Below, piece after piece: positions 27,716-31,014 of a DNA stretch of 64,000 bases. The translations under genes and the position numbers were made by a program. Within the stretch, counting starts at the first letter, position 1. The number at the start of each line of letters is the position of its first letter. The DNA is from Mercenaria mercenaria (Eukaryota), in contig NC_069369.1 of assembly GCF_021730395.1 (NCBI RefSeq), forward strand, positions 29,869,250 through 29,933,249, read 5' to 3'. Below the pieces are notes generated by a model, which ran no database searches, was not told the DNA's origin, and saw only the letters and a program-made list of their open reading frames with translations.

Positions 27716-28689
27716 ACTGTATCAGTCACATGGTTTACGGAATACTTCAGTTATTTTGGATTCCGAAAATGGCGAATCAACGAGAAAAACAGCAAAATTG
27801 CAGTGGTTTGAAACATTGACAGAATTTATGGTATTTCTTGCACAAACATTTTGTTTTTTAATTAGTGTTTACTTGTATCAACAGAATGTGATCCAATTGA
27901 TGGGATACCAATAACTGATTTGTTAGAAACGTGTCTTTTGCAATAAAACAAACGCGACTGTATACTTTGGAGTCATACACCTGTTGACTTTCAAAGAACA
28001 ACCGGCTTTAATGATGAAATGAAATGTAATGCTCAGGATCATCGTCAAAGACCTTTGGCTAGACTAGACCCTAGCCATGCGATTTTCTGTTTGGCAGTGG
28101 CTAGAGAACCGGAATCGATTTCCTAGGCAGCGAACTTATTCGTCCGGAACTGGTTCTCTAGCCAAAGTACCGCGCATAGGTTAGGGAACCAGAATTTTAT
28201 TTCTATGCATAAAGCTGCCGAAATTCACTTTGTTTATTGGTAGGTGTCATGTATATTATTATCTTAATTAATTTTACCATGCCCTTGCATTTATCTGCGT
28301 TTACTGTTTCCAAAAGTGTACTCGCCACATACCGTGTCCGTGATATTGGAATGATATAAACTAGTACGAATGAATGCGTGAAAACTACTTTGCTGTTTTT
28401 AAATGTTATTTGCTTTAAACATGTACTATGTTTAAATTGTTTAAATATAAAATAATACTGATTTGTATCTGCATCATTACATGTTTATAGATGTACAAAC
28501 TGATTTAATTGCCATTAAAACTTCATGCGGATTCTTTGATCACTTTAACAAGAGATCACAGAGTGATCTTGGCGCCCACCAATGTGCCATTTTTGAGTGT
28601 TCCAAATTTCAAGACTTACTGACTAGATCAAGGTCAAATTTCATTTCCGTATACAACACTTTGCATGTGGTCCAAATTCGAAAGCTGTA

Positions 28690-29290
28690 GCTTGAGAAAT
28701 GTGAAAGTAGGTCACTAGATCAATTTCAAGGACGAAATGTGAAAATAGGTCACTAGGTCAAAATCAAGGTCAAATTACACTTCAGAACACAAATTTATGC
28801 ATGTGGTCCAAATTTAAAGCCTGTACCTTCAAAAATGTGGAAGTAGGTCACTAGGTCAATGTCAAGGTCAAAGTTTGTTTTTGGTACACAATCCTATGCA
28901 TGTGGTCTAAATTTGAAGCCTGTAGCTACAGAAATGTGAAAGTAGGTCACTAGGTCAATCTTAAGGTCAAAGTTCATTTCGGTACACAAAACTATGCATG
29001 TGGTCCAAATTTTGAAGGCTGTAGCTCGAGAAATGTGAAAGTAGGTCACTAGGTCAAAATCAAGGTCAAATTTTATTTCGGAACACAGAACTATGCATGT
29101 GTTCCAAATTTGAAGCCTGTACCTTCAAAAATGTGAAAGTAGGTCACTAGGTCAATGTAAAGGTCAAAGTTTGTTTCGGTACACACAACTATGCATGTGG
29201 TCCAAATTTGAAGGCTGTAGCTTGAAAAATGTGAAAGTAGGTCAGTAGGTCAAAATCAAGGTCAAATTCCAATTCAGAACACAAAACTAT
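28690..29290. repeat. Tandem repeat, about 104-bp unit x 6 (..gaaatgtgaaagtaggtcactaggtcaa..caaggtcaaa.t..atttcgg.acaca.aactatgcatgtggtccaaatttgaagcctgta..)
   Basis: The marker atgtgaaagtaggtcactaggtcaa recurs at about 104-nt spacing. Confidence 0.85.
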
Positions 29291-29299
29291 GCATGTGGT

Positions 29300-29660
29300 C
29301 CAACGTCAACATTTTTCCCTATGTAAGTCTATGTAAACCATGTGACCACCGGGGCGGAGCCATATTTGACCCTAGGGGGATAATTTGAACAATCTTAGTA
29401 GAAGACCACTAGATGATGTCATATACAAAATATCAAAGCCCTAGGCCCTGTGGTTTTGAACAAGAGGTTTTTCAAAGTTTTTCCCTATATAAGTCTATAT
29501 AAACCATGTGACCCCCGGGGCGGGGCCATATTAGACCCCAAGGAAATATTTTGAATCATCTTGGTAGAGGACCACTAGATGATGCTTCATACCAAATATC
29601 AAAGCCCTAGGCTCTGTGGTTTTGGACAAGAAGATTTTCAAAGTTTTTCCCTATATAAAT
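29300..29660. repeat. Tandem repeat, about 180-bp unit x 2 (tttttccctat.taagtctat.taaaccatgtgacc.ccggggcgg.gccatatt.gaccc..)
   Basis: Direct duplication read in the sequence. Followed by (GGACGGAC/GGAAGGAC)n at 29820-29890 and the palindrome cccaccatctgatgatggtggg. Confidence 0.8.
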
Positions 29661-31014
29661 CTATGTAAATTATAGAAATAAACAAAGGGCCATAACTTAC
29701 TAAAAAATTGTTGAACCAGTCTGATTTTCAGGGGGACACAACTAGGGTACCAATACATCATTCTGACAAAGTTTGGTCAAAATCCCCCAGGTAGTTTCTG
29801 AGGAGATGCGATAACAAGAAATTGTTAACGGACGGAAGGACGGACGGACTGATGGACGGACGGACGGAAGGACGACGGACCACGGACGCAGAGTGATTTG
29901 AATAGCCCACCATCTGATGATGGTGGGCTAAAAACTGGTTTGTAACACCTCTGCATTTCTTGTTCAAAGATATGTGATCAATACTACGTAACTAACAGAA
30001 ATTACTTAATTTGTTTCTTTTATTTTATATTGTACCTTTTAAGTTTAGGTGCCTTAAGTTTAAATTTCAAGTTTAATTTGGTCTGCTCCAATGCCGACGA
30101 TATCCGCATTCATTAGAATTAGTTTATTTTATAATTCCAATATGACGGACAGTATGCAGCCAGTACACTTTTTGAGACACAGTAAACACAGATAAATGAA
30201 AGGGCATATGGCTTGCTGAAATGGTAAAATTAATTAAGATAATAACATGCATGATACTTACGAAAAGGAACAAAGTAAATTTCGGCAGCTTTATGCATAG
30301 AAATAAACTTCTGGTTCCCTAGTCTATGCATGGTACTTTGGCTAGAGAACTGGTTCCGGACGAATAAGTTCGCTGTCTAGAGAACCGATTCCAGTTCTCT
30401 AGCTAAAGTATACTCCTTTCTCATGGTACTGGGGCTTCCATGATACCGGTGTTAACAGTTTTCTCGCGAGACTTTTATGTTAGCCCCGCCTACTGGATGT
30501 TGACATAATTTGCAGAGTAAACCGGAAGCCGCTCTTCCGTATCGCACATTTTTTTGTGAAAATGTAAGGATTACTGGTAATTTATTTACCTTTTAATAAA
30601 AAACATCTAAAACATGATTTTTTCACCTTTGGTCCCCACCCCATGTGTCAAAAAAAAATATCTATATCTCCTGTAAACAATGTTTATCATCTGGAATTTT
30701 TAGCGAAAATATCGTCTGACAGAATGCTGACGACGTCGCCAAACCGGAAGCCATGTTGTTTCTATATTAAGGTCATTTCTTAGAAATGAAAGTATGGCAA
30801 GCCGTTAAGGCAAAATTAATGCAATATGCAAAATATAATGATACCCAATTAAGCCCCAGTTGATATATATATGGGTCTGTCATTTAAAAAAGATTTTAAT
30901 GTATATTCTCACAAGATAACTTTGCTACTCTTTAATATGGTAGCTGGTGAAATTCTTACCAAAATTTTTGACTTAGATTGATCTAGGTCTAAAAGAAAAG
31001 ATCTGGATATCACT

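Follow-up and report, generated by a model that had tools for sequence, protein, structure and literature searches.

The DNA analysed here, referred to below as the window, is a stretch of 64 kb from Mercenaria mercenaria. Near its middle lie two inverted arms of roughly 280-300 nt, and between them an AT-rich spacer is interrupted by a repeat-bearing element with the anatomy of a non-autonomous Helentron. The features of that element, from its 5' end to its 3' end, are as follows.

28547-29934, minus strand: complete non-autonomous Helentron (HINE, pearl type), 1388 bp, with both tandem arrays inside
29903-29934, minus strand: HINE 5' end, a T-run (29934-29931) continued by the first T of the subTIR (29930)
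29828-29888, minus strand: HINE microsatellite, which reads (GTCC)n along the element strand, or (ACGG)n on plus; TRF period 4, 15.8 copies
29670-29827, minus strand: non-repetitive HINE segment, 158 bp between microsatellite and arrays, with the conserved core AAGAAATTGTTAAC
29306-29669, minus strand: central array 1, 166 bp x 2.2, 85-87% identical (TRF and repeat search)
28598-29303, minus strand: central array 2, 98-99 bp x about 6-7, with a 197-bp dimer periodicity
28572-28583, minus strand: HINE 3' subTIR, GCGCCCACCAAT on the plus strand, with its core GCCCACCA at 28574-28581
28553-28569, minus strand: HINE 3' palindrome, AGATCAC aga GTGATCT on the plus strand, with a 7-bp stem and a 3-nt loop
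28547-28554, minus strand: HINE 3' terminus, CTCTTGTT on the element strand and AACAAGAG on the plus strand

The modules described for HINEs, a putative 3' subTIR among them, are present on the minus strand between 28547 and 29934 and they follow one another in the published order (PMC7492417; PMC4067079). The 5' subTIR TAGCCCACCATC (12 nt, 29930-29919) is preceded by TTTT and is matched at 12/12 positions by a complementary inverted repeat at 29914-29903, across a loop of 4 nt. The resulting fold has an energy of -14.1 kcal/mol (z -7.3), and the 5' ends of the window's other HINEs can be aligned with it. At both termini of the element the similarity to the other HINEs breaks off precisely where the element ends. 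At the opposite end the 8-nt core of the 3' subTIR, GCCCACCA, is the same as the plus-strand copy at 29905-29912 and is complementary to GATGGTGGGCTA at 29919-29930; the 3' and 5' subTIRs agree at 8/8 core positions but only at 8-9/12 positions overall, a much poorer pairing than in the neighbouring HINEs. The 3' palindrome folds weakly (z -2.4); its outer arm comes to within 6 nt of the element's 3' end (28547), overlapping the CTCTTGTT terminus. Both ends of the element are T-runs, the host site has a GC content of 24-30% and no direct repeat flanks the HINE. A pattern made up of ACAAGAAATTGTTRAC and ACGGAC, for which no match is expected by chance, was found in the segment at 29670-29827 and in the HINE at 39266, and also matched one contig in the JGI metagenomes (L003). 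The termini read TTTTTAGCCCACCATC... at one end and ...GTGATCTCTTGTT / CTCTTGTT at the other.

The central repeats form two consecutive arrays in a single orientation. The earlier note had seen a 104-bp x 6 array and a 180-bp x 2 array; both arrays are present, but with periods of 98-99 bp (about 6-7 copies) and 166 bp (2.2 copies). For the shorter unit TRF reported 28735-29303 (period 98, 5.8 copies, 84% matches), and a repeat-family search extended the array back to 28598 by some 1.4 more degenerate or rearranged units, the monomers being 71-92% identical. The claim that the two arrays are unrelated to one another is upheld, no similarity being detectable between the 166-bp and 98-bp monomers, and the 166-bp unit is likewise unrelated to the other arrays of ~160-170 bp in the window. 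The (GGAC)n tract of the note was also recovered, as (ACGG)n at 29828-29888. A block said to be common to the shorter monomer and a 165-bp repeat near 59 kb does occur in both places: AGGTCACTAGGTCAA was found seven times in the 98-bp array (five exact, two with one mismatch; 0 expected by chance) and once, exactly, at 59347-59361. The 59-kb repeat, of ~2.2 units, carries the block in one unit only; this repeat is not reported by TRF and has a period of about 146-153 bp rather than 165 bp.

Elsewhere in the window the terminal features appear again, the 3' signature (AACAAGAG, palindrome and GC.C subTIR) at 26059, 37970, 63009 and 63121. Across the five HINE 3' ends AACAAGAG is invariant and the sequence to the left of it is unrelated, so that similarity stops exactly at that point, and a palindrome occupies the matching position in the other four aligned ends. 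Further copies of the 5' signature (core AAGAAATTGTT, microsatellite, hairpin and GCTAAAAA) stand at 27.7, 39.3 and 5.1 kb; the copy at 59.0 kb is reduced, and that at 63.9 kb consists of core and microsatellite only. SubTIR pairs of 10-24 nt stand at corresponding places in the neighbouring HINEs, with a 24-nt pair that is 88% complementary in the HINE at 26059-27712 and a 10/10 pair in that at 38-39 kb. There are at least five HINEs in the window with common terminal signatures, yet they represent different families, and the 64 kb contain no second copy of the family at 28547-29934. The 138 window ORFs of at least 68 aa contained no transposase, Rep, helicase or endonuclease domain; the only domain matches were TROVE and DUF4062, belonging to a TEP1-like host gene, and one low-complexity match to ApoLp-III. 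An exact-protein look-up of the ORFs found nothing on record. A sequence taken from a 1.5-Mb ENA contig (L001) has TEP1 exons in common with the window (70-85%) but spans 20 kb only; it stops short of the region of the arms and the HINE, and carries no HINE signatures. Neither a paralogous nor an orthologous empty site of the HINE was recovered.

Comparison with described elements places the 28547-29934 element among those known from bivalves. Cg_HINE of Crassostrea gigas (Vojvoda Zeljko et al. 2020, PMC7492417) has an equal order of modules, with a 5' subTIR, a complementary inverted repeat, a GTCY-type microsatellite, a variable segment, satellite-like repeats and a right flank of ~50-60 bp that holds the 3' subTIR and palindrome. 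Its ends are T-rich and it produces no target-site duplication (TSD), as here, the likeness being one of architecture. The variable segment between microsatellite and repeats has a published length of 10-500 bp (PMC7492417), within which the 158 bp found here fall. Two consecutive unrelated arrays in one element, as at 28547-29934, are known from Cg_HINE_11_12 (PMC7492417), whereas the repeat unit of Cg_HINE is usually ~160-170 bp and one of the arrays here has a unit of 98 bp. Similar observations apply to the pearl elements (CvA/CvE/CvG, Gaffney et al. 2003) and to DTC84 of Donax trunculus (PMC3879986), which share the layout of a left flank, core repeats, (ACGG)n and a right flank. The right flank of pearl and DTC84 also has an inverted motif of ~11 nt, and they end in A/T-runs (the 'AA' ends of DTC84), as here. 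The resemblance is again in layout, and these elements have a single array, with a core repeat of ~160 bp in at most 5-6 copies, where two arrays are present here. The GTCY microsatellite of Cg_HINE (PMC7492417) and the ACGG microsatellite of DTC84/pearl (PMC3879986) belong to the same motif class as (GTCC)n. Thomas et al. 2014 (PMC4067079) describe DINE-1/HINE elements from Drosophila and mites in which a subTIR, separated from the 5' end by a few nt, has its inverted repeat 3-22 bp away and is followed by a microsatellite and central repeats, with strings of T at the boundaries, all as here; the distance of their 3' stem-loop from the end is 8-35 bp (PMC4067079). These come from other taxa and have no core sequence in common with the element at 28547-29934.

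The sequence on either side of the HINE has an organisation of its own, with the following features.

28100-28378, plus strand: left inverted-repeat arm, 279 nt, pairing with the reverse complement of 30105-30403
30105-30403, minus strand: right inverted-repeat arm, 299 nt
28098-28164, no strand assigned: left-arm terminal hairpin, 15-bp stem 28098-28112/28150-28164, GGCTAGAGAACC.../...GGTTCTCTAGCC
30334-30410, no strand assigned: right-arm terminal hairpin, 20-bp stem 30334-30353/30391-30410, 95% complementary
28379-28546, no strand assigned: left half of the AT-rich spacer, 168 bp, 24% GC, unique in the window
29935-30104, no strand assigned: right half of the AT-rich spacer, 170 bp, about 30% GC

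The arms had been described as perfectly mirrored over 320 bp. Inverted arms are certainly there (blastn E-value 2.5e-82 for left against right within the window), but they measure 279 and 299 nt and are imperfect. A local alignment has 247/301 identical columns (82% including gaps) and five indels, with 24 gap columns among which is one indel of 15 nt; the divergence in aligned, ungapped columns is ~11%. That each arm starts with a short palindrome of its own is confirmed. The DNA folds have energies of -18.3 kcal/mol (z -4.5) for the 15-bp stem on the left and -21.9 kcal/mol (z -7.5) for the 20-bp stem on the right, and 0/200 shuffles were as good in either case. The 12-nt motif CTAGRGAACYRG occurs in the left arm at 28101 (+), 28150 (-) and 28181 (+) and in the right arm at 30311 (-), 30342 (+), 30377 (+) and 30391 (-), which means that 7/8 of its matches in the window fall within the outer ~95 nt of the arms, the expectation for the whole window being 0.87. 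Iterated short motifs of this kind, three on the left and four on the right, are putative transposase-binding sites.

Arm similarity stops sharply at a spacer of 338 bp that is unrelated to the arms. The two halves of the spacer are not an inverted repeat of each other (alignment score 38 vs a shuffle mean of 32 +/- 5), and a palindromic centre, as in a true foldback, was rejected, the halves aligning no better than shuffles. Without the HINE the host sequence amounts to ~0.92 kb of AT-rich DNA (28100-28546 plus 29935-30403). A TSD of 9 bp, or of 8-10 bp, was sought at the boundary of arm similarity and no clean one was found; a scan of all boundary combinations gave only weak matches or trivial ones inside palindromic CTAG. 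The best alternative arm ends, 28093/30416, give TTTCTGTTT vs TTTCTCATG, a match of 6/9 (P about 0.018 as a single test). The arm terminus has additional, degenerate copies in the left flank, namely CTTTGGCTAGA (28053-28063) and GTATACTTT (27960-27968).

Searches for relatives of the arms were negative. A blastn self-comparison found no arm copy in the 64-kb window beyond the one pair. The conserved 20/21-mer arm blocks CTATGCATAAAGCTGCCGAA and GCGAACTTATTCGTCCGGAAC had no exact match in JGI metagenome, IMG/VR or GTDB contigs, and two homologous arm ORFs, aligned and compared with 5.8 billion proteins from which the source species is absent, gave no candidate homologue. The searched collections do not hold the source species, so these negatives say little about the arms; even the TEP1 exons found at best matches of 60-76% identity. 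Literature searches with the arm terminus returned unrelated primers only. An origin of the arms from a SINE, a tRNA or a structured RNA was rejected, there being no tRNA-like or SINE features in them, no tRNA, no Rfam match that reaches the gathering score and, for the arm hairpin, nothing beyond miRNA-like matches below threshold.

A neighbouring element of ~2.7 kb at 31028-33726 bears on what the arms are. Its TIRs, 206 bp long, likewise open with a short palindrome (GGCTATTC...GAATAGCC), and a clean 9/9 TSD, AAAAGTATA, flanks the element. Its combination of hairpin-type TIR ends and a clean 9-bp TSD means that hairpin-ended long-TIR transposons exist in the source genome. The similarity between this element and the arms is not significant, and their terminal 14-mers agree at only 10/14 positions. 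Given the copies of the 12-nt motif in the outer ~95 nt and a neighbour of the same design with a clean 9-bp TSD, the arms are probably the TIRs of a decayed long-TIR transposon. The suggestion of a foldback or long-TIR transposon in the earlier note is therefore plausible for the arms, with their hairpins, motifs and neighbouring TSD, but they themselves lack a clean TSD, and the window and the scanned collections yielded no further copy. Sharp boundaries, clustered motifs, hairpins and the neighbour make it plausible that a DNA transposon of long-TIR or foldback-like type left these inverted repeats. Foldback and Mutator-like (MuDR) elements likewise have long inverted repeats (~280-300 bp here), iterated short motifs and a variable non-coding middle. 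A 9-bp TSD is typical of the group, whereas the arms reach 6/9 at best and no transposase was found in the window; the arms also lack the tandem subrepeats that extend throughout the arms of Drosophila FB.

Two other origins of the arms were considered. They may be a local inverted duplication of ~290 bp, produced for instance by template switching or fold-back repair, into which the HINE inserted later or around which it was already there. That the arms are unique in the window and have no clean TSD is in keeping with this, and the degenerate copies of the arm terminus in the left flank suggest local rearrangement. We nevertheless consider a duplication unlikely, as in both arms similarity begins exactly at a structured terminus that has a hairpin and 3-4 motif copies and stops sharply at the unrelated spacer, and a bona fide transposon of the same design lies next to it. 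Alternatively, one repeat of ~290 bp (a MITE or a solo transposon end) inserted twice, independently and in opposite orientations, the spacing of ~340 bp being due to chance. Interspersed repeats of both orientations are plentiful in the window, with 31 inverted pairs of at least 120 bp, and the same structured terminus faces outward in both arms. This account is distinctly improbable when the multi-copy families of the window recur several times and the arm occurs as one pair only, without tRNA-like or SINE features and without a TSD around either arm alone.

The question of what carried the satellites is separate from that of the arms. It could be supposed that the whole 2.3 kb is a single foldback or long-TIR DNA transposon, with the arrays as cargo and a cut-and-paste transposase that recognises the arms. 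The arms do bracket the arrays, their ends have iterated 12-nt motifs and hairpins like transposase-binding ends, and such a composite could in principle stay mobile after insertion of the HINE. This is nonetheless very unlikely: the arrays belong to a complete HINE that has termini of its own, and the arms have neither a clean TSD nor a second copy in the window or the scanned collections and, with a divergence of ~11% in aligned, ungapped columns, would be an old, inactive copy. The same HINE terminal signatures, with no flanking inverted repeats, are found at four or more of the window's other tandem arrays, from which it follows that the HINE, and not the arms, is the satellite vehicle. 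Both arrays and (GTCC)n are internal modules of one element, which also identifies the HINE as what brought the satellites. The proposal that a TIR element serves as a satellite vehicle distinct from other carriers is not supported, the arrays and (ACGG)n being part of a HINE, a long-known carrier of satellites in bivalves.

Our preferred reading, to which we assign a probability of roughly three in four, is that 28547-29934 on the minus strand is a complete HINE carrying both satellites and nested in an older host bounded by inverted repeats. The nesting of HINEs in other repeats is reported to be common in C. gigas (PMC7492417). According to the literature, a HINE, whose short satellite-like arrays are enclosed by two flanking modules, would be mobilised by the Rep/helicase/endonuclease protein of an autonomous Helentron, moving in a rolling-circle-type, single-strand manner and entering T-rich (TT) sites without a TSD. 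To judge from the anatomy, the HINE would have inserted into the AT-rich middle of the host, which may be an old, decayed and non-autonomous long-TIR DNA transposon of the Foldback/Mutator-like kind. The host arms would then have had no part in carrying the satellites.

The HINE divides the 338-bp spacer into 168 and 170 bp, which puts it about 1 bp or less from the midpoint, the inner arm boundaries being fuzzy by several bp. This raises the idea that Helentron transposition prefers the loops of long inverted repeats, with the arms and their neighbour at 31.0-33.7 kb forming an undescribed bivalve family of hairpin-ended long-TIR elements. The inverted repeat of ~290 bp, if extruded as a hairpin or cruciform, would place the midpoint of the spacer at the single-stranded apex of the loop, and the HUH-type nuclease of a Helentron would act on single-stranded DNA. 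We regard the idea as most improbable; it comes from a single case, only the HINE at 28547-29934 among five tested having inverted repeats in its flanks (0/4 for the others).

What is directly observed is how the HINE is built, that its termini recur in the window, and that the arms are imperfect and carry motifs. The locus is an ordinary nested-transposon arrangement involving a known kind of bivalve element and no new satellite carrier. The host arms, together with the element at 31028-33726, may merit an entry in the repeat library for the species. A lesson for annotation is that, before long inverted repeats around an array are called its carrier, HINE termini belonging to the array itself should be sought, namely a T-run and hairpin beside (ACGG)n at one end and AACAAGAG with a palindrome at the other. 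The result otherwise changes little: it adds one more HINE, in the rarer two-array form, to those spreading short satellite-like arrays in a bivalve genome.

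The space between two inverted arms (28100-28378 and 30105-30403) holds a structurally complete HINE, a non-autonomous Helentron, which overlaps neither arm. It is read on the minus strand from 29934 down to 28547.

Modules of the HINE at 28547-29934, in reading order
Minus strand, 5' end: TTTT, then TAGCCCACCATC, a 4-nt loop and the perfect complement GATGGTGGGCTA
Minus strand, next: 14 nt, then (GTCC)n, then a 158-bp unique segment opening with GTTAACAATTTCTTGT
Minus strand, arrays: a 166-bp array, then directly a 98-bp array
Minus strand, 3' part: ~13 nt, the 3' subTIR core TGGTGGGC, a palindrome with a 7-bp stem and the terminus CTCTTGTT

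The TAGCCCACCATC/GATGGTGGGCTA hairpin has a folding energy of -14.1 kcal/mol (z -7.3). Published HINEs run in the order 5' subTIR, complementary inverted repeat, GTCY microsatellite, variable segment of 10-500 bp and tandem repeats, with a right flank of ~60 bp containing the 3' subTIR and a palindrome; their ends are T-rich without a TSD, and the bivalve elements pearl, DTC84 and Cg_HINE have been assigned to them (PMC7492417; PMC4067079; PMC3879986). Judged by its sequence, the interior agrees with this architecture in every module and in their order. Cg_HINE_11_12 of C. gigas, which has two consecutive unrelated arrays in one HINE, is a direct precedent for the arrangement found here.

The earlier note had placed a 104-bp x 6 array, a 180-bp x 2 array and a (GGAC)n tract in this interval. 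The tract was borne out, as (ACGG)n at 29828-29888, and both arrays are present, but with other periods: 98-99 bp for the first by TRF and repeat finding (5.8 copies at 28735-29303 by TRF, with a 197-bp dimer signal and degenerate units reaching back to 28598) and 166 bp for the second (2.2 copies, 29306-29669). The 15-mer AGGTCACTAGGTCAA is indeed common to the first array and a tandem repeat near 59 kb, but in only one unit of the latter, which has a period of ~150 bp rather than 165 (2.2 copies, 59073-59400). AGGTCA hexamers occur on the same strand three times per 98-bp monomer across 28598-29303 (AGGTCActAGGTCA, joined in most units by TCAAGGTCA), and this 706-bp stretch holds 20 of the 44 plus-strand AGGTCA sites in the window; the arrangement may resemble that of nuclear-receptor half-sites (DR2 and an extended half-site).

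The 3' signature, AACAAGAG with a palindrome and a GC.C-type subTIR, recurs on the plus strand at 26059, 37970, 63009 and 63121. Aligned with one another, the five 3' ends all keep AACAAGAG unchanged but have unrelated sequence on its left, so that 28547 marks an element boundary. The 5' signature (core AAGAAATTGTT, microsatellite, hairpin, GCT then an A-run) repeats at 27.7, 39.3 and 5.1 kb; a reduced version lies at 59.0 kb, and at 63.9 kb just the core and the microsatellite are present.

Further HINE-type elements in the window (at least five)
26059-27712: encloses 166/333-bp units
37970-39369: encloses 161-bp units
~4700-5128: encloses 171-bp units
~59015-59490: encloses ~150-bp units
~63009-64000: encloses 166-bp units

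All carry a microsatellite and terminal hairpins, and each encloses one of the tandem arrays of the window, the arrays being mutually unrelated in sequence. The subTIR pair is 24 nt long and 88% complementary in the element at 26059-27712 and matches at 10/10 in that at 37970-39369. Among five HINEs compared over 700 bp on each side, only that at 28547-29934 has inverted repeats in its flanks. Since arrays elsewhere in the window have HINE ends and no flanking arms, the tandem arrays of this genome travel with HINE termini and not with long inverted arms. The pattern of core plus microsatellite matched one contig of JGI metagenome 3300022205, a metagenome in which a TEP1-like exon from a related animal is found as well.

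The window is AT-rich (33-41% GC), with many short tandem arrays of ~150-170 bp throughout (TRF), and contains exons of a gene resembling that for telomerase protein component 1 (TEP1). To judge from the repeats and the literature, its repeat landscape is probably a bivalve one.

TEP1-like exons found by domain search
2792-3115 and 3928-4161, minus strand: DUF4062
8865-9119, minus strand: TROVE

The best matches of these exons in the protein collection were only 60-76% identical. An interspersed repeat of ~130-240 bp, found in either orientation, has 10 copies or more (73-94% identical), mostly around this gene (~1784, 3173, 6851, 8564, 15683, 16987, 17271, 20825, 22558 and 23330). The peptide '...NSMDPDQTA...WIHAG...' is encoded by both strands of a repeat at 3624-3862, 5673-5850 and 13746-13896, so the repeat is internally palindromic; it is also found at 72-80% identity in a stretch taken from a 1.5-Mb ENA contig of a related animal (positions 11564-11660 and 17507-17596 of that stretch), which makes it an old, conserved interspersed element. 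A 27-bp minisatellite, CCCTCTACCATATCACTGCTGAATAAT, at 9779-11280 (55 copies, 87% matches) gives rise to long spurious ORFs on both strands.

The arms had been described as perfectly mirrored and 320 bp long; they are truly inverted, but imperfect, measuring 279 and 299 nt and matching at 247 of 301 alignment columns (82%; E 2.5e-82 in a search within the window) with five indels, one of 15 nt. Each does begin with its own short palindrome, a hairpin with a 15-bp stem on the left (28098-28164, z -4.5) and a 20-bp stem on the right (30334-30410, z -7.5), and no shuffled sequence folded equally well in either case. One stem position, read off the sequence, is compensated between the arms (C:G left, T:A right). 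Three to four copies of CTAGRGAACYRG, in both orientations, lie within the outermost ~95 nt of either arm, and seven of the eight matches to it in the window fall there (0.87 expected in the whole window); such clusters look like putative protein-binding sites at the ends of transposons. Once the HINE is taken out, the host measures ~0.92 kb, the arms being separated by a 338-bp AT-rich spacer (24-30% GC) whose halves show no inverted similarity to one another beyond that of shuffles (alignment score 38 vs 32 +/- 5), so the layout is one of TIRs with a unique centre and not a full palindrome. A 9-nt direct repeat, CATGGTACT, brackets the right terminal hairpin (30329-30337 and 30422-30430). 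In the left flank (27960-27970; 28053-28063), GTATACTTTGG and CTTTGGCTAGA repeat the arm terminus in part and in degenerate form, and the inverted-repeat element appears to have undergone rearrangement at its ends.

The arms are most likely a decayed long-TIR transposon, at somewhat better than even odds. A 2.7-kb element 600 bp downstream (31028-33726) has 206-bp TIRs, 92% identical; iterated motifs and a short palindrome (GGCTATTC...GAATAGCC) stand at the start of each. The 9-bp sequence AAAAGTATA is directly repeated, without mismatch, on its two sides (31019-31027 and 33727-33735), and the element has the look of a non-autonomous transposon of Mutator/Foldback-like type, and a young one. 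Its TIRs and Mutator/Foldback-type TSD indicate that hairpin-ended long-TIR transposons exist in this genome. The similarity of the arms to this neighbour is not significant. The arms are left unclassified and fail as Foldback/MuDR members on the TSD, none of which lies at the edge of their similarity; shifting the ends to 28093/30416 gives flanks that agree at only 6/9 (single-test P about 0.018). The arms are the sole such pair in the window, no external copy was found in the searched collections, which lack this species, and no transposase domain was found in the ORFs of the window. Live alternatives are a local duplication in inverted orientation, or a short repeat present twice in opposite orientations. 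Elsewhere, a ~576-bp inverted-repeat pair (39938-40513 / 42851-43426, 91% identical) spans 3.5 kb with TTAA at its outer edges and (TGTC)n inside at 41169-41221, and is a candidate non-autonomous element of a TTAA-targeting type, piggyBac- or Kolobok-like.

The HINE would have entered the host at its T-rich centre, probably by the rolling-circle-type route attributed to Helentrons, with Rep/helicase/endonuclease acting in trans and not encoded in the window, and would have brought in both arrays and the microsatellite. The two-array state may stem from recombination between HINEs or capture of an array-array junction, two origins already put forward for C. gigas. With 168 bp of spacer on one side and 170 bp on the other, the HINE sits at the spacer midpoint to within about 1 bp, where the apex of a hairpin loop would be, but this single case with fuzzy arm boundaries is only a lead. 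Of the earlier proposal that a long-TIR or foldback element serves as satellite vehicle, it stands that the arms may be TIRs; they are not the vehicle, since the arrays sit in the HINE, and nothing indicates that the arms moved them. The satellite carrier belongs to the known HINE/pearl kind, of which it is a further member, slightly unusual in having a 98-bp array beside the canonical 166-bp array.
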